A stretch of DNA of 64,000 bases from Armatimonadota bacterium (GTDB lineage Bacteria; Bacteroidota; Ignavibacteria; OLB7), in contig JADZEY010000020.1 in NCBI GenBank assembly GCA_020850315.1, forward strand, positions 21,618 to 85,617, written 5' to 3'. Below the pieces are notes generated by a model. That model searched no databases. It saw nothing but the letters and a program-made list of their open reading frames with translations, and had not been told where the DNA came from. Shown piece by piece: positions 4,358-60,787 of the stretch. Every line of letters starts with the position of its first letter. Position 1 is the stretch's first letter. The translations under genes were made by a program, and so were the position numbers.

Positions 4358-4380
4358 GCCACAGGCGTATCAGAACACCA

Positions 4381-4408
4381 GAAAGCCCTGCATCATGCAG
4401 GGCTTTCT
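4381..4408 (+). terminator. Stem-loop terminator after the P5CDH gene
   Basis: Perfect inverted repeat aaagccctgca-tca-tgcagggcttt. Confidence 0.5.
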
Positions 4409-4503
4409 GCGTATGTTATGCGCGGTTCTTGTAACCACCTTCCTGCACTGCTTGTTGTTCCTTCCGTCCTTCCCATCAACTATTCTCAAAACGGAGTATT
4501 CCT

Positions 4504-18179: not shown

Positions 18180-19562
18180 TTACAACGACTCCAAAAACAC
18201 AATCAGCGCGTCGCGATCGGCGCGGGGTAGTTGTTGAACGTAGTTGCGTGCTGCTTCGGCTTCGCCGCCGTGCCACAGGATTGCTTCCATCAGATCGCGG
18301 GCGCGGCCATCATGCAGGAAGAACGTGTGGCCGCTTACGATGCGGGTCAGCCCGATTCCCCACAATGGCGGGGTTCGCCACTCGCGTCCGTCGGCAAGAT
18401 AGTCGGGGCGATTGTCGGCAAGCCCTTCCCCCATATCGTGAAGCAGCAGGTCGGTGTAGGGATGGATGATTTGGTTGGAAAGATAAGGTGCATCGGGTGC
18501 AACCCCGGTGTGTAAAGTTTCAATGTGGCAGCTGTTGCAGTTGGCCGCACGGAACACAACTTCGCCACGCTGAACCTTGGGGTCATTCAGCACGCGGCGT
18601 GCCGGAACGGCAAGGGTTGCGGTGTAGTGGGCGGCGGCTTTCAATGTTTGCAAGTCAACCTCAGGATCATTACTGCTGGTGTCGCATTGGGGTTGGCCGT
18701 GGCAGGTTTCCAGCGTGAACATTGTGCTGGTGATCCCCATATCGTTGTTGTAGGCTGCGGCGGCCTGCTGCAGAAGGCTTGGCGTGTTGGCTTTCCAGCC
18801 AAACCTCCCAATCGTGGTGTTGTTTGCTTGTGCATCCCAAACGTAGTTGGCGCGCCCGCTGATTCCATCACCGTTCTGATCGCTTGGATCGGCATTGGCA
18901 AGCAATGCTGATTCCGGAATCGCCTCCAACAGACCCAAGCCAAACACTGGCGGGGCAACACGTGGGGAAAGCATCATTCCAGCGGGGATGGGGCGGTAGG
19001 AAGAGGCCACAACATAGCGCGGTTCACGTAGTGTGTAGGGCAGCCCATCGGCAAACGTTCCTTGCCGATCAATGTAGGTGACGCTCACTTTCCCTTCGGC
19101 TGGGATTCCGAACACGCCGCGATCCTGCAACTGCCCACCGAACCCCGGAACAGGATTTGGTCCCCCCTGATTGTCGGCACCGGGAATGCTGATGCGGAAG
19201 AGCATCGAGCTGAAATTTTCGCCGGCGAACGGTGGACGGCCGCGCCCATCGCGGGCATGGCAGCTGATGCAGGAAGTGTTGTTATAGACCGGCCCCAAGC
19301 CAGCATTGACGCTGGCCGGGGCCGTGACGAATGTTGCTTCGAACGCGGCATCCCCTTCAACATGGAGGTTAAACGCATCTCCATCAAGGTTGGGCGCGGG
19401 GAAGGAGAAGGCCGCGCTGGAGGCGTTAATGATGGTTGTTTGGCCACCGGAACGTGCGTCGGTAGTTGTTGGCGGGGTTGGCTCGGTTGTGGAATCGTTG
19501 CCACATCCGGCAACCAGTACCAAGCCCAGCAGAGCAGTTGTAGAATAGCGAGAAAGTGCCAT
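18180..19562 (-). CDS. Di-haem cytochrome c peroxidase-like lipoprotein (DUF1111 / thiol oxidoreductase family)
   Basis: Lipoprotein signal ...LVLVAGC. Two CxxCH haem-binding motifs (CISCHA, CNSCHI). It sits directly downstream of an imelysin gene, which is the known imelysin/peroxidase pairing. Confidence 0.75.
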   Translation of the reverse strand: MALSRYSTTALLGLVLVAGCGNDSTTEPTPPTTTDARSGGQTTIINASSAAFSFPAPNLDGDAFNLHVEGDAAFEATFVTAPASVNAGLGPVYNNTSCISCHARDGRGRPPFAGENFSSMLFRISIPGADNQGGPNPVPGFGGQLQDRGVFGIPAEGKVSVTYIDRQGTFADGLPYTLREPRYVVASSYRPIPAGMMLSPRVAPPVFGLGLLEAIPESALLANADPSDQNGDGISGRANYVWDAQANNTTIGRFGWKANTPSLLQQAAAAYNNDMGITSTMFTLETCHGQPQCDTSSNDPEVDLQTLKAAAHYTATLAVPARRVLNDPKVQRGEVVFRAANCNSCHIETLHTGVAPDAPYLSNQIIHPYTDLLLHDMGEGLADNRPDYLADGREWRTPPLWGIGLTRIVSGHTFFLHDGRARDLMEAILWHGGEAEAARNYVQQLPRADRDALIVFLESL

Positions 19563-19577
19563 GGCTACTCGTGGAAA

Positions 19578-20642
19578 TTATGGTAGAAGCGTTTTGGTTA
19601 CTTCATTATCGAAGGTGGCTTGCAGTGTACGCACAGCGGCTTGCGCAGCCTCGACAGCGGTTTTGTTGCTGAAAATCGCTTGGCCAAACGATGGCTGCAT
19701 TGCGCCAATCGCCGCGATTGCCGCATCAATTTCGGTGCGAACACGAACGTCCAGCGTGCTATCCTTTGCCACGACTAATTGGCTGATTCCTTTGCCGCTG
19801 TTGGTTCCGTAGGTTCCTACATATATGTTCTTTACGCTGCGGATGTTGTCCTGGAAATCAGCGTTGGAGTTGTTGCTGAACTGCGATTCTTCCAGCGTGC
19901 GGTCTTGCAGTGTAAATGGGTCGTTGATCTTGCCGTTGGCAACTTCATCGCAGATAGCGGCCATGCCACCGATGATATCCTCTAGCCCGCTCCGTTGCGA
20001 GGTGTAGATGGTGCTGCTTCCGCCAGCATTTGCAAGCTGTGCAGCAAAGTTGTCGCCGGTGGCTTCCCATGATTGGCGCAGCTGTGCGGTTGCCCCCTTG
20101 AAGCTTTGGGTCACGGCCACCAGATACTCAATCTCACGCGTGGTCATTGCTGAGGCTGGCTTTGTTTCGCTGGTTCCAAAGATCAAATACTCGATGGTGT
20201 GGAAGCCTTTCAGTGTTCCTTCTAAGCCATCAATGTATCCCTTGGTAAGGGTAGCACTGCTGGCAAGCACGGCATCTAAATCTACTTTGTTCACCGGCCA
20301 GCTATCAATGCTTGGGTCAATCCCTTTGGTGTCAACCGGGCCGAACAGAAATCCTTCGCTTTGTTCCCACGGGCGGCGTGCATCGCGCCAAGCCTGGCGT
20401 GCGGCCTCCAGCTTTGCATCGGTGATGCCAGTTTGCAGTGCGGCAACTGCATCGGCAAGCACTTGGGCTTTTTGGTCAAGCTCGATGTAGGTAGGAAGGA
20501 TCACCTTGTAGGCAACGTCGTTCAGAACGGCTGAGACCTTCTGCTCATCGGTATCCACTGGCTCGGTGGTGGAGTCGCTACAAGCCGCAACGGCAATTGC
20601 CAACAACGCAGCTGCAAATGGGATATGGAATCGGTAGTTCAT
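19578..20642 (-). CDS. Imelysin-family lipoprotein (IrpA / peptidase M75-like)
   Basis: Lipoprotein signal MNYRFHIPFAAALLAIAVAAC. Imelysin-like helical bundle motifs (...ARQAWRDARRPWEQSEGFLFGP...GFHTIEYLIFG). Confidence 0.75.
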   Translation of the reverse strand: MNYRFHIPFAAALLAIAVAACSDSTTEPVDTDEQKVSAVLNDVAYKVILPTYIELDQKAQVLADAVAALQTGITDAKLEAARQAWRDARRPWEQSEGFLFGPVDTKGIDPSIDSWPVNKVDLDAVLASSATLTKGYIDGLEGTLKGFHTIEYLIFGTSETKPASAMTTREIEYLVAVTQSFKGATAQLRQSWEATGDNFAAQLANAGGSSTIYTSQRSGLEDIIGGMAAICDEVANGKINDPFTLQDRTLEESQFSNNSNADFQDNIRSVKNIYVGTYGTNSGKGISQLVVAKDSTLDVRVRTEIDAAIAAIGAMQPSFGQAIFSNKTAVEAAQAAVRTLQATFDNEVTKTLLP

Positions 20643-20724
20643 GGTAGGAATTGGTTGTTAGGTTTCGGTTAAAGGAAGGAAGAATCTTGACTCCTTCGTA
20701 ATGCAGTTGTAACTCAGTAGTAGT

Positions 20725-22032
20725 TCAAAACTCCACCCCCATTCCCAGCCCAAACGTTTGTTCGACGTTATCGGTGGGAATGCCAAGTGTGCGGTTTGTG
20801 AAGTCAGCTTTGAATGTGAGGTTATGGTTCAGGCGGTAGTTTAGGCCCACGGTCCAGACCTTCCGTTCCCATCGCGGGTTGTCAAAAATTCCTTCGGCAA
20901 CCTTGTGCATGGTGTCGTAGTATTCATATCGCCCAAATAGGTGCAATGCTGGCTGGGTTCCCTCTTCACCATGCTCTTCTTCCTTCTGCTTGCGGGTTAC
21001 TTCCTCGGTTGGTTCCCCCTCGGGTATTGCTGCTTTTGCCGGAGTGTAGAACCATGGCAGGATATCATACCCCGCTTCGGCAAACCAGCCAAGCGCCGCG
21101 CTGCCAACGGGGGAGCGTTTCACGTTGAGGTTGTTGGAAAGATTGCGATTAGCTTTTGAGACTGCTCCGGCGTTTTCTAACCCGCCATACAATGCCATTG
21201 CGCGTGCAAGGAATGGACCTTCTTGGAGTGTGCCATGCAGTTCGCCAATGGTGACGTGAGCCGGAACTGTCAGGTCTGGCTTTGGGCGGTTATCGGCACT
21301 GTTGCCGAAGTATCCGCTGGCTCCAACCGAAGCTCCATCGCTTACCTGGTAATCAACCCGCCCCACCACTGCCATGTTCTCGGCGTTAATCATCTCGAAC
21401 TTCCCTTGATGCCCTCGCACAATCCAATTTGCCGAGCTGAATCCGGTGGCATCCAAGCCATTGACCAGTTGTGCACGATACCGCAGCCCACTCCACTGGC
21501 CAAACACCTCAATCCCTGTTTCGTGCCATGTTGCCGGGATCATGTTGAACTCCATCTCCGAGCGTGCAACCGTGAAGTAATCGCCTGGTTCGTAGGCAGA
21601 GTTTGTTAGCCCGATAGGAACGTAGAAATGCCCCACGCGCAGGTTGAATTCCGGAGCGAATTCAAGTATTGCGGCCAGCTTTTCCACCACAACTTCACCA
21701 CCTTTCTCAATCTCCTGCTCGTATTCGCCGAACTCCTCCAGCTTATCGAACTCCATAGTGCTTCCGGTTCCACCATGCTCGAACTCAATCTCTGCTTCCA
21801 GTTTGATCTTGTCGCTCACACGGTACTCCGGCTCGATTGCAAACCGTTCTAAGTCGAACGCTGCACGGCGTGGAAGGTCGGTATCCCACCAAAACTTGTA
21901 GTAGTTAATGATGCCGTATCCTTCTACCGAGAAGCGGTCAAGCTGTGCGGTTGCCGATTGAGTAAGTATGCTGATGCCTGTAAGTATCAGTAGAGGCAGT
22001 TGCCAACGGTAGCGGGAAAGAGGTATGGACAT
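20725..22032 (-). CDS. Outer-membrane beta-barrel protein, putative porin (phosphate-selective porin O/P-like)
   Basis: Signal peptide MSIPLSRYRWQLPLLILTGISILTQSATAQ and a beta-strand-rich composition ending in a C-terminal aromatic residue (...LGMGVEF). Family assignment is tentative. Confidence 0.5.
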   Translation of the reverse strand: MSIPLSRYRWQLPLLILTGISILTQSATAQLDRFSVEGYGIINYYKFWWDTDLPRRAAFDLERFAIEPEYRVSDKIKLEAEIEFEHGGTGSTMEFDKLEEFGEYEQEIEKGGEVVVEKLAAILEFAPEFNLRVGHFYVPIGLTNSAYEPGDYFTVARSEMEFNMIPATWHETGIEVFGQWSGLRYRAQLVNGLDATGFSSANWIVRGHQGKFEMINAENMAVVGRVDYQVSDGASVGASGYFGNSADNRPKPDLTVPAHVTIGELHGTLQEGPFLARAMALYGGLENAGAVSKANRNLSNNLNVKRSPVGSAALGWFAEAGYDILPWFYTPAKAAIPEGEPTEEVTRKQKEEEHGEEGTQPALHLFGRYEYYDTMHKVAEGIFDNPRWERKVWTVGLNYRLNHNLTFKADFTNRTLGIPTDNVEQTFGLGMGVEF

Positions 22033-22129
22033 ACAGTTGTTGTGTAGAAAAAAGAGCAGCAATTGGATTCGGTAGATCCGGGAGCCACAAACTTAACTAC
22101 CTGCTAATCTAAACTAAGTCCAAAAATGT

Positions 22130-22171
22130 AATAGTTTCTTATTTGAACTTAATCCAAATAAGAAACTACTA
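22130..22171. promoter_or_regulatory. AT-rich perfect inverted repeat (14-bp arms, 10-bp spacer) in the divergent porin/TonB-receptor promoter region; candidate operator
   Basis: tagtttcttatttg-aacttaatc-caaataagaaacta. It directly abuts the candidate -7 element TATCTTTG at 22170-22177. Confidence 0.45.
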
Positions 22172-22177
22172 TCTTTG
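22170..22177 (+). promoter_or_regulatory. Candidate -7 promoter element TATCTTTG upstream of the TonB-dependent receptor gene
   Basis: TAnnTTTG match 43 nt upstream of the start at 22220. Confidence 0.3.
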
Positions 22178-22219
22178 CTCCCGATTCAACAATCAGCACG
22201 ACTTCCAGCATAGTCCCAG

Positions 22220-24598
22220 ATGCCCGTATTCTACTCCTATTTGCAGTTTCCCCTATTGACGATCCATTGGCAGCGCCTGTTGGGGGGCTTCTGTTTATTG
22301 GCCTGTCTTCTTAGTGCGCAAGCTGTTGCCCAAACCATTCATACTGTTCAGGGAGTTATTGTTGATGAACAAGGTGATCCGCTCCCTTTCTGCACAGTTC
22401 GATTGGTTGGTCAGCAGAAGGGGGGCGACCGCCACACTACCACCACAGCAAACGGGGAGTTTGCGCTCACGGTTGATGATGATGAAGTGTATACCCTTAC
22501 AGCAACACGGGTCGGATTCTATGCTGAAACCATCCCCGTGAGATTCCCCACACCTACACCCGCACAGCCAGTCCGTATTGTGCTTCGGGAGCAATCGTTG
22601 GCCACAAGTGAGGTTGTGGTGACGGCTACCCGTTCGGTTCGCGAACTATCCACGTCGCCAACTTCTGCGACGGTTGTCACCGCACGTGAGATGCGTTCGC
22701 AAGGGGCAAGGCTGCTCGGCGAGGTGCTTGCCGAGCAGCCTGGGCTGGCCATCATCAATGACCACGGGCAAGGGGTACAGATGCAAGGGCTTGACCCAGC
22801 CTACACGCTGATTCTGATTGATGGCGAGCCAGCCGTTGGCCGCACAGCCGGAACCATGAGCCTTGATCGCTTTATGGTTGGTGATTTGGAAAGAGTGGAG
22901 ATTGTGAAAGGCCCTTTTAGCTCACTCTACGGCAGCGAAGCACTGGCTGGAGTGATAAACCTTATTTCCCGCAGGCCAGGGCGTGTTCCGCAATTGTCGG
23001 GATCGGCTGAATACGGAACCAATGGCAGGCGAAATTTTACCCTGAACGGCGAAGGAAAGATTGGTGAGGTGGGGGTGCGGCTTTTTGGTGGCTATCTCGG
23101 CTCCGATGGCTATGATCTAGACCTCTCCAGTCTGTCGCCAACCGTTGCCCCGTTCAATAACTACTCACTTTCTGCGCTGGCCGCATCCCCTCTTACTTCT
23201 GCGATTGATCTTTCCATCAGCGGCAAATTCTCTGCCGAGCGAAGCAGTAGCCAAACTGAGTTAGTGTTGAGCGCAGATACAGTCCTATTTGATGACCGAG
23301 GGCAATTAGATGAATTCAATATCTCTGGTAAAATCGGCTATGCTGTTAGTTCAACATTGCGCCTTCAAAGCAGCTTCTATACCGCACGCTATGCAACCGA
23401 AAGCACCCTTACTTCGCCAACCGACACTGCTTTTGCGAACTACTACCGTAGCATCTTCGATCAAGGGCTAACCAAAGGGGAAATTGTCGCTGACTGGTCT
23501 CCAAATGCAGAGCACTACCTGACTGTGGGGGGAGGTATTGCTGCCGAATCGGTGGAAGCTGAATTGATTGCCGGCGGGGTTCGCACCGCAACCAACGCCC
23601 ATCTGCTGGCACAACATCAGTGGCAACCCAATGCTGAGTTCGGGCTTGTTGCTGGCGTTCGGTTTGATTCCCACAGCGACTATGCTGCACGCCTTAGCCC
23701 GCGGCTTTCACTTCTCTACAAGCCTATCGAGTGGGGAACGGTGCGCTTTTCGGCAGGAAGCGGTTTCAAGGCACCGACATCTCAGCAACTCTATCTCGAC
23801 TTTACTAATCCCACCGTTGGCTACAGCGCATTTGGTGCTGTGGGATTGATGGATGCAGTCAATCGTCTGCGTGATGCAGGGGAGATTCAACGAATGCTGC
23901 GTGACGTGGAAGGTAGCACAGTGCTTCGCCCGGAAAGCTCTATCTCGCTTGGCATGGGATTGCAGGCCGCCCCTCATCCCACTCTGCGCCTGACGCTCGA
24001 CCTTTTCCATAATCGTATTCATGACCTTATTGAAGCCACCGCATTTGCCGTAAAAACCAATGGCCAATATGCTTTTAGTTACTTCAATCTGGAGCGTGTG
24101 GTGACGCAAGGGGCAACCGCCGAGGCCAGTTGGGAGCCGCTGACTGGGCTGACACTTGCAGCCTCCTATCAATTCCTTGATTGCTTTAGTGTGGAAGAAC
24201 AGGAAAGCATTACACGAGGTGATATTCAAAAGGTGGGAGCCACCGGACAGGTTCGCGCTGTGCAGCTGGTGGAGTATGGCGGATTGTTCAATCGTTCGCG
24301 GCATAGCGGCACGCTACGCATTAGCTATAACGATACTGCCACTGGCATCGAGGCTGCACTTCGCAGCACCTTGCGTGGCCGCTACGGCTATGCCGATGCT
24401 AACAGCAATGGCGTGTTGGATGATGCTACCGAGTATCACGCTGGCTACATGCTCTGGAATGCTTCAGTAAGCAAACAGCTTGGCTCATGGCTAACAGCTT
24501 TTGCCACCGCCGAAAACCTTCTTGACCACACCGACCCACAACTCCCCGAGCTTCCCGGAAGGCTGCTTGGCTTGGGGATTCGCGTGGAGTTCCGATAA
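22220..24598 (+). CDS. TonB-dependent outer-membrane receptor (probable haemin receptor, HmuR-like)
   Basis: Signal peptide, a carboxypeptidase-regulatory-like N-terminal domain, a plug domain (...ATRSVRELSTSPTSATVVTAREM...) and a beta-barrel with a C-terminal ...GIRVEF. Followed by an HmuY-like gene and a haem ABC importer. Confidence 0.85.
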   Translation: MPVFYSYLQFPLLTIHWQRLLGGFCLLACLLSAQAVAQTIHTVQGVIVDEQGDPLPFCTVRLVGQQKGGDRHTTTTANGEFALTVDDDEVYTLTATRVGFYAETIPVRFPTPTPAQPVRIVLREQSLATSEVVVTATRSVRELSTSPTSATVVTAREMRSQGARLLGEVLAEQPGLAIINDHGQGVQMQGLDPAYTLILIDGEPAVGRTAGTMSLDRFMVGDLERVEIVKGPFSSLYGSEALAGVINLISRRPGRVPQLSGSAEYGTNGRRNFTLNGEGKIGEVGVRLFGGYLGSDGYDLDLSSLSPTVAPFNNYSLSALAASPLTSAIDLSISGKFSAERSSSQTELVLSADTVLFDDRGQLDEFNISGKIGYAVSSTLRLQSSFYTARYATESTLTSPTDTAFANYYRSIFDQGLTKGEIVADWSPNAEHYLTVGGGIAAESVEAELIAGGVRTATNAHLLAQHQWQPNAEFGLVAGVRFDSHSDYAARLSPRLSLLYKPIEWGTVRFSAGSGFKAPTSQQLYLDFTNPTVGYSAFGAVGLMDAVNRLRDAGEIQRMLRDVEGSTVLRPESSISLGMGLQAAPHPTLRLTLDLFHNRIHDLIEATAFAVKTNGQYAFSYFNLERVVTQGATAEASWEPLTGLTLAASYQFLDCFSVEEQESITRGDIQKVGATGQVRAVQLVEYGGLFNRSRHSGTLRISYNDTATGIEAALRSTLRGRYGYADANSNGVLDDATEYHAGYMLWNASVSKQLGSWLTAFATAENLLDHTDPQLPELPGRLLGLGIRVEFR

Positions 24599-24664: not shown

Positions 24665-25258
24665 ATGATGCTTACTCGTTATTTCTCTGCCGCTTTTCTT
24701 GCTAGTGCTATCGGCCTTGCATCGTGCGGCGACGACGCAGTTGTTGAGCCAACGCCCACGCCAACCCAGGTTGCAACCACCGCCAAGGATATTCCTGGCG
24801 ACACCGCCAACACTGGCCATTACACCTTCTACCGCCTAAGCGATAGCAGCATTGTCTCGCTGGCGGATTCGGCAACAACCAAGTGGGATATTGCCTTCCG
24901 TGGCACCTCCATCATTGTCAACAGCGGCAGCAGTGGCCCCGGTACAGCCGCCGGGCAAGTGCTGACAGGCGTTGACTTTGACACGCTGAGCATGGCCCCA
25001 GAAGCCGGCTACAATGTTGATGCTCCGAACACGCCAGCCCTGGGTAAAACGTGGTACTCCTACAATCCCACCAACCACCTGATCTCCATTGTCCCCGGCA
25101 AAATTTTTGTGCTGAAAACGGCCGATGGCAAGTATGCAAAGCTGCAACTGTTGGGCTACTACAAAGGCGCGCCAGCTTCGCCAAAACCGGAAGAGCCAGC
25201 CCGATTTTTCACCTTCAAGTACGTGATCCAAAAAGATGGATCAAGGAAGCTGAAGTAA
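24665..25258 (+). CDS. HmuY-like haem-binding lipoprotein
   Basis: Lipoprotein signal (...AIGLASC), size ~197 aa, a WDIAFRG motif and a position immediately after the TonB receptor, as in Bacteroidetes hmuYR loci. Confidence 0.55.
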   Translation: MMLTRYFSAAFLASAIGLASCGDDAVVEPTPTPTQVATTAKDIPGDTANTGHYTFYRLSDSSIVSLADSATTKWDIAFRGTSIIVNSGSSGPGTAAGQVLTGVDFDTLSMAPEAGYNVDAPNTPALGKTWYSYNPTNHLISIVPGKIFVLKTADGKYAKLQLLGYYKGAPASPKPEEPARFFTFKYVIQKDGSRKLK

Positions 25259-26205
25259 TGGTGCGAACAATCAATCGTTCCGGTGCGTGGCCATTCTTGC
25301 TGGCGGTGATTCTTGCAATGGCTGCTTGCCAAAAGCAGGATGCTGAGCAAGGGGTGAAGTCAACTTCGGCACAGGAGGATTTAGCAAAAAAAGAACGGAT
25401 CATCACGCTTGGTGGGCCGGTGACAGAGGTGGTCTATGCGCTTGGTGCGGGGGATCAAGTGATTGCTACCGACATCAGCAGCACGTGGCCAGCGGCGGTG
25501 GCATCACTGAAAAAAATTGGCTACCAGCGGACTCTTTCTGCCGAAAATATCATCGCCTTGGGGCCAACGCTGATCCTTGCTTCGGCGGAGGCAGGGCCGC
25601 CAGCAGCGATTGAGCAGTTGCGGGCATCGGGGATTCGGATAGAGGTGATACCATCGGAGCACTCACTTGCCGGAGCCAAGCAGAAGATTGATGCGGTGGC
25701 AAAAGTTTTGGGCTTGGAGGAATCCGCAAAGCACCTACGCGATACCATCGCCCGCTACGCTGTGGCTGCCGACTCGCTTCAGCGATTGGCCGCCGCAGGT
25801 TCCCCGGCAAAAATCTTGTTCATCTACGCTCGCGGGGCTGGCGCATTGCAGGCATCGGGAAAAGGAACCGCTGCCGATGCGATGCTTGCCGCGTCTGGCT
25901 TGCGCAACGTGGTGACGGAGTACGATGGCTACAAGCCGCTAACCCCCGAAGCAATCGTTGCAGCTAACCCGCAAGTGGTGCTGATGACTACCAGCGGGCT
26001 GCAAAGCATCAGCGGGAAAGAAGGGCTGCTGAAAGCAGTCCCTGCGCTTGCCCAAAGCGATGCGGGGCGCGCCGGGCGGATTGTTGCAATGGATGATGAA
26101 TTACTGTTGGGCTTTGGCCCCCGCTCTGGCCAAGCAATTCTGGAGTTGCGCCGCAAGATTGATTCGGTGCAAGCAATGCAATCACCAACCGCTGCCCGAT
26201 TGTGA
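25258..26205 (+). CDS. Periplasmic haemin/siderophore-binding protein of an ABC transporter (HmuT/FecB-like)
   Basis: Start MVRTINRS overlaps the upstream stop (TAATG). Class III substrate-binding-protein fold (...RIITLGGPVTEVVYALGAGDQVIATD...). Confidence 0.85.
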   Translation: MVRTINRSGAWPFLLAVILAMAACQKQDAEQGVKSTSAQEDLAKKERIITLGGPVTEVVYALGAGDQVIATDISSTWPAAVASLKKIGYQRTLSAENIIALGPTLILASAEAGPPAAIEQLRASGIRIEVIPSEHSLAGAKQKIDAVAKVLGLEESAKHLRDTIARYAVAADSLQRLAAAGSPAKILFIYARGAGALQASGKGTAADAMLAASGLRNVVTEYDGYKPLTPEAIVAANPQVVLMTTSGLQSISGKEGLLKAVPALAQSDAGRAGRIVAMDDELLLGFGPRSGQAILELRRKIDSVQAMQSPTAARL

Positions 26206-27299
26206 ACCGTTCGATTGCACTTCCCACACGCCGCCGCGCTTCCCAACGTATCCACGGCCGCCTTACAACACCACGATTGTTGCAAGGTGGGTTGATGTTG
26301 CTGCTGGTTGTTGTGGTTATGGCCGCCGTTGGCATCGGTGCTGTGGGAATTTCGCCCGCCCAAGTGGTTGCCATTGTGCTTCAGCAGATTGGCATTGATC
26401 TGGGGGGGAGTTTCGGCATGAATCAATCGGGAGTGCTGTTGGGGGTGCGCTTGCCACGTGTGTTGTTGGGGGTTCTGGTTGGTGGCGCGCTTGGCGCGGC
26501 TGGGGCCGCTATGCAAGGGCTGTTTCGCAATCCGCTTGCTGACCCCGGCTTGATTGGGGTCAGCAGTGGGTGCGCGTTGGGGGCTGTGCTTTGCATCGTT
26601 GTTGGCAATGCAATGTTCCCTGCGTTCCTGAATCAACTTGGGCTGTACGCCCTTCCGGTGGCTGCCTTTGTTGGCGGGCTCTTGGCCACGTTGCTGGTCT
26701 ATCGAATCTCCGCACGTAGCGGAATCCGAAGCGTTAGCACAATGCTGCTTGCTGGGATTGCGGTGAACGCCCTGGCAGGTGCGGCCATTGGCCTTTGCAC
26801 CTACCTTGCCACCGATGCCCAACTTCGCAACCTCACTTTCTGGAGCTTGGGAAGCCTTGCCGGGGGAACTTGGGAGACGCTATCGGTGGTTGCCCCGCCG
26901 ATACTGCTTACCCTGCTGCTGCTGCCCCGTTTTGCGCGGCAGTTAAATATGCTGGCATTGGGGGAAGGTGAGGCAGCTCATCTTGGAGTTTCCATCAACC
27001 AGTTGAAATGGCGGGTGACGGGGTTGTGTGCGTTGGCGGTTGGCGCTTCCGTCTCGATGACCGGATTGATCGGCTTCATCCCCTTGATTGCACCTCACCT
27101 TGTGCGCCTCTCTATCGGTCCCGACCATCGCCATTTGATCCCTTGCTCAACATTGCTTGGCGCAGGCTTGCTGGTTGGCGCAGACCTTGCTTCGCGCATG
27201 GTTGTCTCGCCAGCCGAGCTTCCAATCGGCATTATTACCGCCATTGTTGGAGCCCCGTTCTTCTTGTGGCTATTGATGCGCGAGCAGCGAATAGCCTAA
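26202..27299 (+). CDS. Iron/haemin ABC transporter permease (FecCD family)
   Basis: Polytopic membrane protein with FecCD family motifs (...[30 protein letters not shown]...). The start overlaps the preceding gene by 4 nt. Confidence 0.9.
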   Translation: [365 protein letters not shown]

Positions 27300-27411
27300 G
27301 CAAGAAACGCCGAAACCTACCTGCGGCGCGGCCCAAGCGGTTGCCGCCACCCATGCTGAAAACCGCAGTTGAAAACAGCACATTCATTATCGCCGAACCA
27401 GCAAAGCACCA

Positions 27412-28245
27412 ATGGCACTGCAAGCCCGAAACATCACTGTTGAACGCTCCGGCAAACGATTGCTGGACTCCGTTTCCCTTTCGATTAACTGGGGGGAAGT
27501 TGTGGCATTGATTGGCCCGAACGGAGCCGGGAAATCAACCCTGCTGAAAACGTTCAGTGGCACGCTGAACCCAACACACGGCGCGGCTACCTTTGCCGGA
27601 CGTGAGTTATGGGAGTTAAGCCCAGCCGAACGCGCAAGGGTGATTGGGGTGCTGCCGCAGGAGTCGTCGCTGAGTTTGCCCTTCACAGCAATGGAGGTTG
27701 TGGCCATTGGATGCCAAGCTGGCGGAGCCGATGGGGCCCAGGCCGAGCAGATTGCACGCCAAGCATTGGCCGACGCTGACGTTGAGCATCTATCCGAGCG
27801 AATCTACACCACCCTTTCCGGTGGGGAGCGGCAGCGGGTTCACCTTGCCCGCGTGCTGGCTCAGTTGTGGCGTTCGCGCAATCGCGAACGGTACTTTCTG
27901 TTCGATGAACCCACCAGCAGCTTGGACCTTGCACACCAGCACCGGATGCTAAGTGTTGCCCGCCAGTGCGCTGCCGAAGGCGCCGGGGTGTTGGTGATCT
28001 TGCACGACCTGAACCTTGCCGCACAGTATGCAGATCGGATTGCCCTGCTGCACCACGGAGCACTAACCGCCGAAGGCACGCCGGATCACGTGCTGACCCC
28101 CGATGTGCTAGACCCCGTGTTCCAAGTTACCACCTGCGTCTTCCGCCACCCCGGGCTTCCCTGCCCGCTGATTGGTGCGTTTGGCAAGCAAAGCATTGTG
28201 GATGCCGGTATCCCTCACGACTTCATGCAACCAAGTTCAACATAA
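27412..28245 (+). CDS. Iron/haemin ABC transporter ATP-binding protein
   Basis: Walker A GPNGAGKST, ABC signature LSGGERQRV and Walker B FLFDEPTSSLD. Confidence 0.9.
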   Translation: MALQARNITVERSGKRLLDSVSLSINWGEVVALIGPNGAGKSTLLKTFSGTLNPTHGAATFAGRELWELSPAERARVIGVLPQESSLSLPFTAMEVVAIGCQAGGADGAQAEQIARQALADADVEHLSERIYTTLSGGERQRVHLARVLAQLWRSRNRERYFLFDEPTSSLDLAHQHRMLSVARQCAAEGAGVLVILHDLNLAAQYADRIALLHHGALTAEGTPDHVLTPDVLDPVFQVTTCVFRHPGLPCPLIGAFGKQSIVDAGIPHDFMQPSST

Positions 28246-28266
28246 CCTTCCATAAGGAACACAATA

Positions 28267-29343
28267 ATGACGGACACAGCAACCGTAAGCCCAGCCACAA
28301 CCGAGCAGCTTACCGAACTTCGCGCCGCGTGGGACGCACTGCGCCAAGAACAACCTAACCTCCGTATCCGCGACGCTGCACGCCAACTTGGCGTAAGCGA
28401 AGCCCAACTGCTGGCCACCAACTGTGGCCACACCGTGCAGCGATTGCAGGCAGATTGGGGGCAGCTTCTGCTGAAACTGGAATCGCTGGGCCAGGTGATG
28501 GCGCTTACCCGCAACAACCATGCAGTCCACGAAAAAGTTGGGACTTACCACAGTGCTTCGGTCAACGGGCTGATGGGTTTAGTGGTAGATCGTGACATTG
28601 ATCTGCGGGTGTTTTTCAGCCACTGGGAATATGGCTTTGCCGTCACCGAAGAAGGGAAAGGTGGGGTGCGCCGTAGCCTGCAATTCTTCAGTAAACATGG
28701 CGAGGCAGTCCACAAAGTCTATCTGCGCGAAGACTCCAACGCGGCGGCGTATGATGAGCTTGTGAGCCAGTACCGCAGCGAAGATCAATCAGGGCTGATA
28801 GAGGTCACAGACCAACCCATCACCGCCGACCGCCCCGATCAGGAGATTGATTTTGCGGGATTGTACAGCGAGTGGCGCGCCATGGAGGACACACACCAAT
28901 TCTTTGGAATGCTACGCAAGTACAACGTTGGCCGCGTGCAGGCACTGCGCAATGCCGAAGCAGACCTTGCGCGCCCAGTTGCGCTGGATTCCATCCACCG
29001 CGCACTAATCATTGCAGCCCAGGAACAGCTTGGGATTATGGTGTTTGTCAACAGCCCCGGCGTGGTGCAGATACACTCCGGCCCAGTGGAGCGGATTGTG
29101 GTGACCGGGCCATGGGTGAATGTGCTTGACCCAGGGTTCAACTTGCACTTGCGCCAGGATGCAATCGCATCGGCTTGGATTGTCCGAAAGCCAACAACCG
29201 ATGGCGTTGTCACCTCGCTGGAAGTCTTCGATGAAGCAGGGGAGACAATCGCCCTGATGTTCGGCGAACGGAAGCCGGGCAAACCGGAGTTGCCGGGATG
29301 GAGAGCGATTGTGGAGCGGTTGGAAGCTGAGGCAGCAGCATAA
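28267..29343 (+). CDS. Haemin-degrading / haem-trafficking protein of the HmuS/ChuS/HemS family
   Basis: 358-aa two-repeat architecture immediately downstream of the haem ABC importer. The N-terminus ...LRIRDAARQLGVSEAQLL... is typical of ChuS/HemS. Confidence 0.8.
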   Translation: MTDTATVSPATTEQLTELRAAWDALRQEQPNLRIRDAARQLGVSEAQLLATNCGHTVQRLQADWGQLLLKLESLGQVMALTRNNHAVHEKVGTYHSASVNGLMGLVVDRDIDLRVFFSHWEYGFAVTEEGKGGVRRSLQFFSKHGEAVHKVYLREDSNAAAYDELVSQYRSEDQSGLIEVTDQPITADRPDQEIDFAGLYSEWRAMEDTHQFFGMLRKYNVGRVQALRNAEADLARPVALDSIHRALIIAAQEQLGIMVFVNSPGVVQIHSGPVERIVVTGPWVNVLDPGFNLHLRQDAIASAWIVRKPTTDGVVTSLEVFDEAGETIALMFGERKPGKPELPGWRAIVERLEAEAAA

Positions 29344-29361: not shown

Positions 29362-29392
29362 GGCCCGCCCACACTGGCGGGCCATTTTTTTG
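29362..29392 (+). terminator. Rho-independent terminator after the hmuS-like gene
   Basis: ggcccgcc-cacact-ggcgggcc followed by T7. Confidence 0.6.
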
Positions 29393-29496
29393 CACAACAC
29401 AGAAATGGTGTGGAAACCTTCCAACACCCTGTGTTATCTTGATGCTGCAACACATTCAACACATTCAACACCTGCCCTTAAGGAGAGCAATCAACT

Positions 29497-31557
29497 ATGC
29501 GATTTCTTGCCACAATGCTGTTTACGGTGTGCGGTTCCGTTAGCCTGTTATTTGCCCAGCAGCGCGACACTGCACGGGTTCCCATCGACACGTTAAAAAC
29601 GTACCGACTTGGCGAGATCGTTGTTCGCGGGGAGCAGGAAGCAACGGTCTCCACCTCCACCATCCAGCGAATCCCCGCCGCAAAAATTATTGCCAGCGAT
29701 GCGCCCACCGCCGACCGGCTTGCGGTAATCATGCCAGCAACCCGCGTACAAACCAACTCACGGGGTGAGGCAATCCTCTACATGCGTAACGCTGGCGAAC
29801 GCCAAACGGCCATTTTTCTGGATGGTGCATTAATCAATATCCCCTGGGATAACCGGCTAGATCTAAGCCTGATTCCGATGAACAGCGTTGGCGGGGTGAC
29901 GCTCTCGCAAGGGGTAGCATCGGTACTCTACGGGTCGAACATCTTGGGGGGAGCTGTGGAGTTTGTTTCGCAGGAGCTTGCCACGCCGGGTTACTTGACC
30001 GATATCGGCGTTGCTGGCGGGAATGATGGCTACTACTCAATCCAAGCAATGCACACCGGGAACTTGGGGGTGTTTAACTACATTGCTTCGGCTAACCTTA
30101 TGCGGCGCGACGCGCTGTCATTCCCCGATAGCTCGGTGTTCCAGGCCGACGGCGAAACTCCATTTCTGCACAACCAATTCAATGCCGACCAACGGACCAA
30201 CACCGACTCGCGAATCTTCAACACCTACGCCCGTGGCGAACTGAAGCTGGCAGAGCGGGCCTCGTTGGGGCTTTCCACCTCGTTCATTGATGCAAGCAAA
30301 GGGGTTGCGCCGGAAGGTCACGTTCCCGATGCACGATTCTGGCGATATCCAACATGGCGGAACCTTTCGGTGGTGCTGAACGGTGATGCCGAGTTTGGCG
30401 AAAACAGCCAGTGGAATCTGCGGGGCGCGGTTTGGGCAACATCCTTCGCCCAGACGATTGACCAGTTTGACGATGCAACCTACGCCGTGCGGAACACCAG
30501 TCAGGAAGATGAAGATATGACGTTGGGAAGCCGGGTTGTGGTTGGCCACACAATCGGCGATGGCGACGTAACCATCACCGCTGCTTTGAACGCCTTGCAA
30601 TCTGCACACGACCAGCGCGATAACGAAGTTGACTCCACCGGAACCGTAATCCCAGCGCCCACGGCACAGTACAAACAACAGAACATCAGCACCGGCCTTG
30701 AAGCTACCGTGCAGCTTATGCCAACGCTGCAAGCGGTTGTGGGGGTGGGATACGACATGATGAGCACCCCGCTGACGGGGGATAAACCAGAGCGCGACCC
30801 GTTCACCGATTGGAGCGGCACCGTAGGGGTGCGATGGACGGTAAGCGATGCGGTGGCCGTGCGTGCTTCGGCGGGCCGCCGCACACGGTTCCCAACCATG
30901 CGCGAACTGTTCGGGGAAGCACTGCGCCGATTCCTTGTGAACCCCGACCTGAAGCCGGAAAATGCAGCCCTGTTTGAAGCTGGTGCCGAAGGGAAAGGGG
31001 CCGGCGGCCAGTGGGGGCTGACGGCATTTGCCAGCGATGTTAGCAACACCATTGACCAACGCAACATCGACACGTTAGGTGGACGCAAACGGCAGCGCAT
31101 CAATCTTTTAGGAAGCACTACCTACGGTGCCGAACTGACTGGTGGAATCCACCTTCTGGAGCGGCTGAACTTGGACGGCCATTTCACCTTTATGCACACC
31201 CGCGCCAGGGTGACATCAAGCACCGGAGCCGATTCCACATCCTACCTTTCCGAGAAACCGGAGTATGTGGGAACCATTGCTGCATCCTACAACTTCCCGT
31301 TTGGCCTAACCCCTGCCGTCGAGCTTCAGCTAACCGGCCAGGCGTTCACGCTGAATGATGATAACCGCTTCATCGCGCTTGGCACCTCGGGGTTGGTGAG
31401 CGCGCGGCTTTCGTGGCAGACGATGATTCCAGGTTTGGAGAGCGTCACCACACTGTTTGTTCGGGTGAACAACATTGCCAACACAGCGGTGCTTCCGCAG
31501 CTTGGATTGCCAGCGGTGGGGCGTGAGCTTCAAGCCGGGGTGCGGGCATCATTCTGA
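29497..31557 (+). CDS. TonB-dependent outer-membrane receptor (second copy)
   Basis: Signal peptide MRFLATMLFTVCGSVSLLFAQ, a plug domain, a beta-barrel and a C-terminal ...GVRASF. Confidence 0.85.
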   Translation: MRFLATMLFTVCGSVSLLFAQQRDTARVPIDTLKTYRLGEIVVRGEQEATVSTSTIQRIPAAKIIASDAPTADRLAVIMPATRVQTNSRGEAILYMRNAGERQTAIFLDGALINIPWDNRLDLSLIPMNSVGGVTLSQGVASVLYGSNILGGAVEFVSQELATPGYLTDIGVAGGNDGYYSIQAMHTGNLGVFNYIASANLMRRDALSFPDSSVFQADGETPFLHNQFNADQRTNTDSRIFNTYARGELKLAERASLGLSTSFIDASKGVAPEGHVPDARFWRYPTWRNLSVVLNGDAEFGENSQWNLRGAVWATSFAQTIDQFDDATYAVRNTSQEDEDMTLGSRVVVGHTIGDGDVTITAALNALQSAHDQRDNEVDSTGTVIPAPTAQYKQQNISTGLEATVQLMPTLQAVVGVGYDMMSTPLTGDKPERDPFTDWSGTVGVRWTVSDAVAVRASAGRRTRFPTMRELFGEALRRFLVNPDLKPENAALFEAGAEGKGAGGQWGLTAFASDVSNTIDQRNIDTLGGRKRQRINLLGSTTYGAELTGGIHLLERLNLDGHFTFMHTRARVTSSTGADSTSYLSEKPEYVGTIAASYNFPFGLTPAVELQLTGQAFTLNDDNRFIALGTSGLVSARLSWQTMIPGLESVTTLFVRVNNIANTAVLPQLGLPAVGRELQAGVRASF

Positions 31558-31583: not shown

Positions 31584-31619
31584 AATAAGCGGTGGCATCG
31601 GGAGATGCCACCGCTTATT
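31584..31619. terminator. Bidirectional terminator between the TonB receptor gene (+) and the ferritin-like gene (-)
   Basis: aataagcggtggcatc-ggga-gatgccaccgcttatt. Confidence 0.6.
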
Positions 31620-31645: not shown

Positions 31646-32086
31646 CTACCGGACTACATCCGGTTTTAGCATTTTCTCCACTTCCTCAATGTGTCCCGTC
31701 TCCTCCTGAATTTGCATCTCCAAAAACAGCCGCAGCCCCAAATGCTCCGGCATCGCCTCGATGTCCCGAAGCAGATCAGCGTATGCCCCCCACGCGGCTT
31801 TCTCAAGATTTAAGGCGGCCTTCAGCATCTCGTTCAGTGTGTCGAAGCTCCAGGGGAATTGGTCGGCTGCCGGGAAGGTGCGCGGCGTTCCCCCCAACGA
31901 GGTGATTTTATCACCCACCAATGTGGCGTGGGCAACCCCTTCGTTCGCTTGCTCCCGCAGCCATCCCACGATTGGAATCATCGAATGGCCATAGATGAAG
32001 TAAGAATAATGGAGGTACATCATCGTGCCGGAAAGCTCCAGTGCCAGAATGCTGTTTAACCGTTCGCAGATTTGTTCGTTGGTCAT
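31646..32086 (-). CDS. Ferritin-like superfamily protein (bacterioferritin-like four-helix bundle)
   Basis: Start at MTNEQICERLNSILALELSGTMMYLHYSY... with the E/H-containing helices typical of the ferritin fold. The upstream 31 codons of the ORF-track entry are judged non-coding. Confidence 0.65.
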   Translation of the reverse strand: MTNEQICERLNSILALELSGTMMYLHYSYFIYGHSMIPIVGWLREQANEGVAHATLVGDKITSLGGTPRTFPAADQFPWSFDTLNEMLKAALNLEKAAWGAYADLLRDIEAMPEHLGLRLFLEMQIQEETGHIEEVEKMLKPDVVR

Positions 32087-32245
32087 GGCTGCTGTTGATT
32101 TAGTGACTTGTTTCCCTGCCTGCCAGGTTGCGGCGAAGATACGAACAACAACGGCTGAACAATAACCGCCACCCCACACTTTTTCGGCTCACACGTTGGT
32201 TGGCTGATAGCGGTGAGTTAGCTTGTGGCCAGTTGGTGGGAACGT

Positions 32246-54504: not shown

Positions 54505-54550
54505 ACAAAAAAGCCTTCCGAACTCTCTTCGGAAGGCTTTTACTTTTTCT
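54505..54550. terminator. Bidirectional rho-independent terminator
   Basis: A6-gccttccgaa-ctctc-ttcggaaggc-ttttacttttt. It lies between paralog 2 (+) and the sugar transferase gene (-). Confidence 0.65.
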
Positions 54551-60726: not shown

Positions 60727-60764
60727 AACAAAGCGGTGTGGGAACAACTTCCCACACCGCTTTG
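60727..60764. terminator. Stem-loop (possible terminator for the convergent lipoprotein gene)
   Basis: acaaagcggtgtgggaa-caac-ttcccacaccgctttgt. The T-run is weak on both sides. Confidence 0.35.
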
Positions 60765-60787
60765 TTGTACCGCTTTTGCCCGATCAA

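Follow-up and report, generated by a model that had tools for sequence, protein, structure and literature searches.

A predicted Fur-type operator in the divergent promoter region of a haem-uptake operon from a lineage known only from metagenomes

Our question was what a perfect AT-rich palindrome is doing in the short region between two divergently transcribed operons, one of which encodes a haem-uptake system. The palindrome lies in the window, by which we mean the whole 64-kb stretch of DNA that was analysed. A sequence-only reading of the window had claimed that it is an operator for a repressor of iron- or haem-regulated genes, either from the Fur family or another, and that it overlaps the promoter of the TonB receptor gene. 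This claim is supported by the gene context, by the match to a known motif, by the recurrence of the arrangement in other organisms and by a precedent in Riemerella. With a probability of roughly 0.68, we take the palindrome to be an operator of the Fur type that is built into the haem-uptake promoter and represents the Bacteroidota-type Fur box in its local form.

The perfect 14-bp AT-rich palindrome that had been reported is present. Its two 14-nt arms, TAGTTTCTTATTTG (22132-22145) and CAAATAAGAAACTA (22155-22168), are fully complementary, and with the spacer aacttaatc (22146-22154) they make up a 37-bp dyad at 22132-22168. The spacer has 9 nt and not the 10 first proposed, and the earlier span of 22130-22171, though correct in location, carried 2-3 surplus bases at each end. 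The dyad extends imperfectly to 22-nt arms (22124-22176) that are 86% complementary. The G+C content of 200-nt windows at the palindrome is 38.5-41%, compared to 50-58% around the locus and 56.5% for the whole window, so the segment is indeed AT-rich but the genome figure of 60% GC quoted with it does not hold for the window. Perfect inverted repeats with arms of at least 14 and loops of at most 20 are expected 0.005 times per window (mean of 200 local-composition shuffles), and the repeat at 22132-22168 is therefore not due to chance. The other four such repeats in the window (4379-4409, 31584-31619, 54509-54541 and 60727-60766) are G+C-rich perfect hairpins whose arms measure 14-18 nt and whose loops measure 1-5 nt, in the form of intrinsic terminators. 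The repeat studied here is the sole AT-rich one of that length, and it sits in a promoter region.

The genes on either side are as the sequence-only reading had them, a porin-like gene on the minus strand and a TonB receptor-HmuY-ABC-HmuS locus on the plus strand, and the Pfam domains agree with this (TonB receptor, HmuY, Peripla_BP_2, FecCD, ABC_tran and HemS on the plus strand). The divergent intergenic region is 187 bp long. To its right, the haem-uptake operon begins with an HmuR-like TonB-dependent receptor (22220-24598; CarboxypepD_reg, Plug and barrel domains), and continues with an HmuY-family haem-binding lipoprotein (24665-25258; PF14064) and with a periplasmic binding protein, a FecCD permease, an ABC ATPase and a HemS/ChuX haem-degrading protein (25051-29343). 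The listed start of the binding-protein reading frame at 25051 overlaps hmuY, and judging from the gene calls in the orthologous locus of the related genome L069 the true start is probably near 25260. A G+C-rich hairpin followed by a T-run at 29362-29391 on the plus strand, read from the sequence, is likely the intrinsic terminator that closes the operon. To the left, on the minus strand (18180-22032), lie the genes for the porin-like protein, an imelysin (19578-20642) and a di-haem oxidoreductase (18180-19562), an order that is identical in L069. The porin-like protein has a Porin_O_P domain, and from the ATG and signal peptide that can be read in the sequence its probable start codon is the ATG at 22032. 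By their predicted products, the two divergent operons both serve to acquire iron or haem. Further downstream of the haem operon there is a second TonB receptor (ATG at 29497) and a ferritin-like gene (31646-32179). Just upstream of this second receptor, about 2.5 copies of a tandem 9-mer, ACACATTCA, are found at 29450-29473, which could be a different regulatory site. The Pfam search of the window's reading frames found no regulator gene adjoining the haem locus and no FUR domain among 21 of them, and tblastn with E. coli Fur against the 64-kb window gave only matches with E > 3.

Inside the palindrome lies a 19-bp core that looks like a Fur box, ATTTGAACTTAATCCAAAT at 22141-22159, which we call box 1 and which with its conserved ctt and aag flanks comes to about 25 bp (22138-22162). 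It is identical to the Fur-box consensus of Riemerella anatipestifer, ATTTAGAATTATTCTAAAT, at 14 of 19 positions and has the same length, frame and ends. The five mismatches all fall in the central heptamers, where TTGAACT and AATCCAA deviate at several positions from the Bacteroidota TTAGAAT and ATTCTAA. Compared with ATTTGGAATNATTCCAAAT it has 3 mismatches, and 0.03 such matches are expected by chance. The 3-mismatch dyad matches elsewhere in the window lie in coding or unrelated sequence and were dismissed.

To score the whole window we used a position weight matrix whose training set consisted only of Riemerella sites and of the boxes that precede hmuR-like genes (loci L002-L006, described below), with no sites from the window's own clade or from a pattern search. 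Box 1 has the top score among some 64,000 positions, 21.7 bits, and this is above all of 100 local-composition shuffles (median maximum 11.3 bits, highest 20.5). Much of this score comes from the ATTT and AAAT ends, and the central heptamers are the weakest part. A weaker Fur-box-like 19-mer, box 2 (ATCTAAACTAAGTCCAAAA, 22107-22125), lies 34 bp to the left of box 1 and has the third-best score, 14.3 bits, which is not significant alone. The second-best score, 14.5 bits, belongs to AATTAGATGAATTCAATAT at 23304-23322, inside the coding sequence of the TonB receptor; it falls under the 95th percentile of the shuffles (16.1) and may be a chance match. Box 1 is the only strong site in the 64 kb, where the matrix otherwise gave just the weak box 2 and this intragenic match, and neither reading by eye nor the scan found a box before the second TonB receptor or the ferritin-like gene. 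It had been suggested that further copies of the half-site be looked for, and half-site and relaxed-dyad searches returned none in the 64 kb.

The conservation of the region among close relatives was followed in a four-way alignment of the window with L001, L069 and L070, whose receptor proteins are 82-88% identical to that of the window. The nearest genome record is L001, a metagenome-assembled genome labelled Chlorobiota bacterium (receptor 88% identical), and L069 (84%) and L070 (82%) have the same divergent gene order as the window. Beyond these three, receptor homologues reach no more than about 44% identity. The intergenic DNA varies among the four genomes except in a few invariant stretches. 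One of these is a 30-bp block at 22102-22131, which includes box 2. Another runs from 22135 to 22157 and takes in most of the left arm, the spacer and the beginning of the right arm. Between them, the outer end of the left arm (22132-22134, arm positions 12-14) is variable. In the right arm substitutions begin at 22158 and indels past 22163, and its positions 10-14 (22164-22168) are unconserved. Box 1 is identical in L001 and L069, and in L070 it differs at 22158 (A to G). The perfect arms are 12 long in L001, they are interrupted in L069 and they match at about 8 of 14 positions in L070, so that the three relatives keep only the inner 9 nt or so of each arm. On this comparison the perfect 14-bp symmetry is a local peculiarity of this genome which is not conserved, and since the outer arms are unconserved, selection acts on the inner 25 bp or so rather than on a 14-bp stem. 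For box 1 we find three of the features by which a Bacteroidota-type Fur box is recognised: a match to the lineage consensus (a 19-bp dyad, ATTTrGAATnATTCyAAAT), a place in the promoter of an iron gene and conservation in orthologous promoters.

Two predicted -7 elements flank this arrangement and point outwards. On the plus strand, TATCTTTG (22170-22177) fits TAnnTTTG, the -7 consensus of flavobacterial sigma-A (PMC9723704), and lies 42 nt before the receptor ATG at 22220. It had been claimed that the palindrome ends one base before this element, and c22169 is indeed the only base that separates the right arm from it. On the minus strand, TAAGTTTG (22088-22095), assigned to the porin/imelysin promoter, is an exact match to TAnnTTTG. 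From left to right the layout is the minus-strand -7 element, an 11-nt gap, box 2, a 15-nt gap, box 1, a 10-nt gap and the plus-strand -7 element. A promoter scan found no sigma-70-type promoter in the region. The motif TAnnTTTG occurs 21 times in the window against 20 expected, which is chance level, and the argument for promoters here therefore rests on the pattern of conservation. The plus-strand element stays TAnnTTTG in all four genomes (TATCTTTG, TATTTTTG and, in two of them, TATATTTG), with changes only at the n positions, and on the minus strand an island reading CAAAnTTA is conserved in the four genomes amid variable flanks. Because only the n positions vary, it appears that a lineage with a nearest record labelled Chlorobiota uses -7 elements of the Bacteroidota type. 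The distance from the TTTG of the box to the -7 element is 24-26 nt in the window's clade (24 here) and 19-22 nt in the Bacteroidota and metagenome examples, so here the box may be out of register with a canonical -33 element. Seen in the four related genomes together, this spacing exceeds the usual 19-21 nt. A separate observation concerns the presumed 5' leader of the receptor mRNA (22178-22219), in which the stretch CGATTCAACAATCAG is invariant in all four genomes, more than would be expected for a leader.

The hmuR-like loci L002-L006 were fetched by protein similarity to the receptor and not by any DNA pattern. In all five, a Microscillaceae metagenome-assembled genome (L002), a Cytophagaceae one (L003), two from Hymenobacter (L004 and L005) and a Cytophagales one (L006), the sequence ATTTrGAATnATTCTAAAT is found upstream of the hmuR-like gene. 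A TAnnTTTG follows the box after 6 nt in L002, L003 and L006, and L002 has a further box before a second TonB receptor (8691). Several of these loci also show a second box, TGTTTAGAATATGTCTAAAT, in the hmuR leader (about 5890-5913 in L004, about 5800-5825 in L005 and 3298-3316 in L002), which abuts the start codon in L004 and L002 and lies some 80-100 nt before it in L005. Such a leader box at the start codon is absent from the window's locus, unlike many hmuR loci of Cytophagales and Hymenobacter. In two Ignavibacteria loci, L074 and L075, the box takes the form cTTATTTAgATTTAGTCTtAaTAA and stands before the response-regulator gene that heads hmuR-hmuY, and in L074 an additional box lies immediately before hmuR. 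The left flank of the Ignavibacteria boxes, CTTATTT, is that of the window, and no -7 element was recognised next to them. The response regulator, directly upstream of hmuR-hmuY, has a GerE (LuxR-type) domain (3254-3877 in L074 and 3175-3819 in L075). This suggests a two-layer control in Ignavibacteria, with a Fur-like box before the regulator gene, a layer which the window's clade would do without.

The nearest receptors outside the clade (L071, L072, L073 and L076, 42-44% identity) sit in iron-gene clusters with no such box. A dyad before feoA in L071, TCGGACTAAATTAGTCCGA, has a frame that differs from that of box 1 and was not used. This organism is unrelated (53% G+C), and the perfect dyad found at 20-50 of the locus, TCGGACTAA-A-TTAGTCCGA, just upstream of feoA, may be a Fur-family site of its own lineage.

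A search of metagenomes for the pattern TCTTATTTG-N9-CAAATAAGA gave 45 distinct sites, most of which have unrelated spacers and resemble chance matches or terminator hairpins. Only 3 of the 45 have an adjacent TAnnTTTG, and all 3 are among the four sites with the most Fur-like spacers. One lies directly before feoA-feoB (L054), one, TCTTATTTGGAATAATTCCAAATAAGA, forms a perfect dyad of 27 bp ahead of a lipoprotein that shows a weak DUF4856 match (L040), and one precedes a protein of unknown function (L021). Taking both searches, the site recurs in other organisms at the two TonB receptors of L002 and at the feoAB of L054. This geometry, a box and then TAnnTTTG, comes back before hmuR homologues, a second TonB receptor and feoAB, and it is one of the points that support the operator reading. 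We also noted an extended dyad with a Fur-like spacer, TCTTATTTGAATTGATTCCAAATAAGA, in four metagenome bacteria of about 48% G+C (L010 6210-6236, L063 11518-11544, L056 4394-4420 and L007 6317-6343). These sites follow an mlaD gene and its terminator; they lie some 280 nt upstream of dnaA in L010, L063 and L056, and the L007 sequence ends before any downstream gene. They have no obvious iron context and do not fit an iron role, a point against the Fur reading. The list of Riemerella Fur boxes also holds a site upstream of a gene of the Mce/MlaD type.

The closest studied counterpart is that of Riemerella. Its Fur box was first defined by prediction together with mobility-shift assays on whole promoter fragments (PMC5609570), and promoter fragments that contain the predicted box are shifted by Fur, with Mn2+ in the binding reaction (PMC5609570; PMC7976709). 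At the bidirectional rhuH / rhuR-rhuA haem promoter, where rhuR-rhuA encode a haem receptor with an HmuY-type partner, deletion of the Fur box or of fur derepresses transcription (PMC11967795). In both cases a 19-bp dyad, rich in A+T, has ATTT...AAAT ends (ATTTAAAATTATTCTAAAT at hmuR, compared to ATTTGAACTTAATCCAAAT here) and sits in a short promoter region from which a TonB haem receptor operon and a divergent neighbour are read, and Riemerella also has an imelysin locus that is Fur-regulated. The window differs in that its dyad reaches perfect 14-nt arms (37 bp) and in that a second weak box stands at the other promoter, whereas in Riemerella one box serves both. Riemerella also belongs to the Flavobacteriales, whereas the window's lineage is labelled Chlorobiota.

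The classical E. coli Fur box, GATAATGATAATCATTATC, in its 7-1-7 reading TGATAATnATTATCA (Baichoo and Helmann, cited in PMC5609570), is likewise a 19-bp AT-rich dyad with a 7-1-7 layout which overlaps iron-uptake promoters, and the repression by promoter occlusion seen there when iron is bound would apply to the window site by analogy. It differs in sequence (TGATAAT-n-ATTATCA, compared to TTGAACT-t-AATCCAA in the window) and in going with a -35/-10 promoter rather than one with a -7 element of the TAnnTTTG type. The Cytophagales, Hymenobacter and Ignavibacteria boxes share with the window the downstream gene family, the box frame and the place just upstream of TAnnTTTG; the aag flank is common to L003, L005 and L074, and the ctt flank to L074 and L075. 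In the Cytophagales and Hymenobacter examples, however, 6 nt separate the box from the -7 element and the TTTG of the box is at the canonical -33 distance of 19-20 nt, compared to 10 and 24 nt in the window. The hmuYR locus of Porphyromonas gingivalis, from the same superphylum, is also an HmuY-HmuR haem-uptake locus in which a Fur homologue, PgFur/Har, is involved, but PgFur is described as a member of a non-canonical Fur subfamily (PMC6613475; PMC4222909).

From these comparisons we can outline how a Fur-type operator would work at this locus, where Fur as the binder, repression, the response to iron and the transcription start sites are what we infer from the sequence. With enough iron, one or two metal-loaded dimers of Fur would sit on the dyad centred on t22150. 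The conserved core cttATTTG-N9-CAAATaag ends 10 nt before TATCTTTG and would cover the -33/spacer part of the promoter, so that bound Fur would deny RNA polymerase access to the hmuR-hmuY-ABC-hemS operon. Under iron shortage Fur would come off and the haem operon would be transcribed. Box 2, which is 11 nt from the minus-strand -7 element, would probably play the same role for the porin-imelysin-dihaem oxidoreductase operon, which would give two operator-promoter units placed back to back, both released by the loss of iron.

One alternative is that the site is the operator of a different dimeric regulator, which could be haem-responsive, a Fur-family paralogue of the PerR or Zur kind or an unrelated repressor, and that its likeness to a Fur box comes only from its being an AT-rich dyad. 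This could account for the central positions that deviate from the Bacteroidota consensus and for a 37-bp dyad that exceeds a 19-bp box. The GerE-domain regulator upstream of hmuR-hmuY in Ignavibacteria means that other regulators act at such loci, and no fur gene was found in the 64-kb window. Yet the part of the dyad that is conserved has the length, the frame and the ends of a Fur box (ATTT...AAAT with ctt and aag flanks), and it is placed with respect to TAnnTTTG like the boxes before feoAB and other TonB receptors, which point to an iron regulon rather than a haem-specific one. The window also has no regulator gene adjoining the locus. Weighing these points, we consider a different regulator unlikely.

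A related possibility keeps the iron operator but has it rebuilt as a longer composite, in which the 37-bp dyad and the second, diverged box within a 60-bp invariant block are bound by a higher-order Fur assembly, or by a regulator of altered specificity to which the central heptamers TTGAACT/AATCCAA would belong. Such a composite would switch the two back-to-back promoters, with their unusually long distance of 24-26 nt from -33 to -7, as one unit. We find this quite doubtful.

It is also conceivable that no repressor is involved and that the dyad is only an AT-rich promoter element, -33-like or UP-like and shared by the divergent promoters, the symmetry being a by-product of promoters placed back to back. 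The Bacteroidota -33 motif TTTG does occur in the left arm and, read on the opposite strand, in the right arm as well, and the imperfect 22-nt arms reflect outward -7-like sequences, namely TACATTTT at 22123-22130 (minus strand) and TATCTTTG at 22170-22177. However, TAnnTTTG is at chance level in the window, so most promoters here would lack such a dyad, and in unrelated genomes the dyad is found again specifically ahead of iron-uptake genes. In addition, none of the nine spacer bases varies in the clade, a constancy that would be needless for a plain AT-rich spacer. A promoter element alone is therefore very improbable as an explanation.

There remains the reading of the repeat as a nucleic-acid hairpin, whether a minus-strand intrinsic terminator, an RNA element or a cruciform. 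A simple scan labels its minus strand as terminator-like, a hairpin and then CATTTTTGG, and folded as single-stranded DNA the palindrome has an energy of -10.9 kcal/mol (z = -5.5), but both of these follow from the dyad symmetry. In L001 both arms change at the twelfth position with the pairing kept (G:C to A:T), which was rejected as hairpin covariation, the outer arm being unconserved in L069 and L070. An intrinsic terminator was likewise rejected, with just 3 G-C pairs in the stem, no gene end nearby and the hairpin lost in L070, and the search of the window against Rfam gave no match at the gathering threshold (the best, rli36, has 19.7 bits against a threshold of 50, with E = 0.64, which is chance level). 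With both neighbouring genes starting here, a 9-nt loop in the perfect form, both predicted -7 elements pointing away so that the repeat is probably untranscribed, and a right arm that is interrupted in L069 and degraded to about 8 of 14 in L070 next to an invariant inner left arm and spacer, a hairpin function can hardly be entertained.

A Fur-type operator built into the haem-uptake promoter is thus the reading that we retain. The predicted site is best filed as an ordinary and expected regulatory site of the known Fur-box family in a poorly sampled lineage, and it leaves the understanding of Fur regulation unchanged. Its use lies in the annotation of iron regulons. It provides a concrete, testable map of the predicted operators and promoters of haem and iron uptake in a lineage for which metagenomes are the only source, and together with the other loci it indicates that a Riemerella-type Fur box, with the same placement relative to TAnnTTTG, extends across the Cytophagales, Hymenobacter, the Ignavibacteria and the Chlorobiota-labelled clade.
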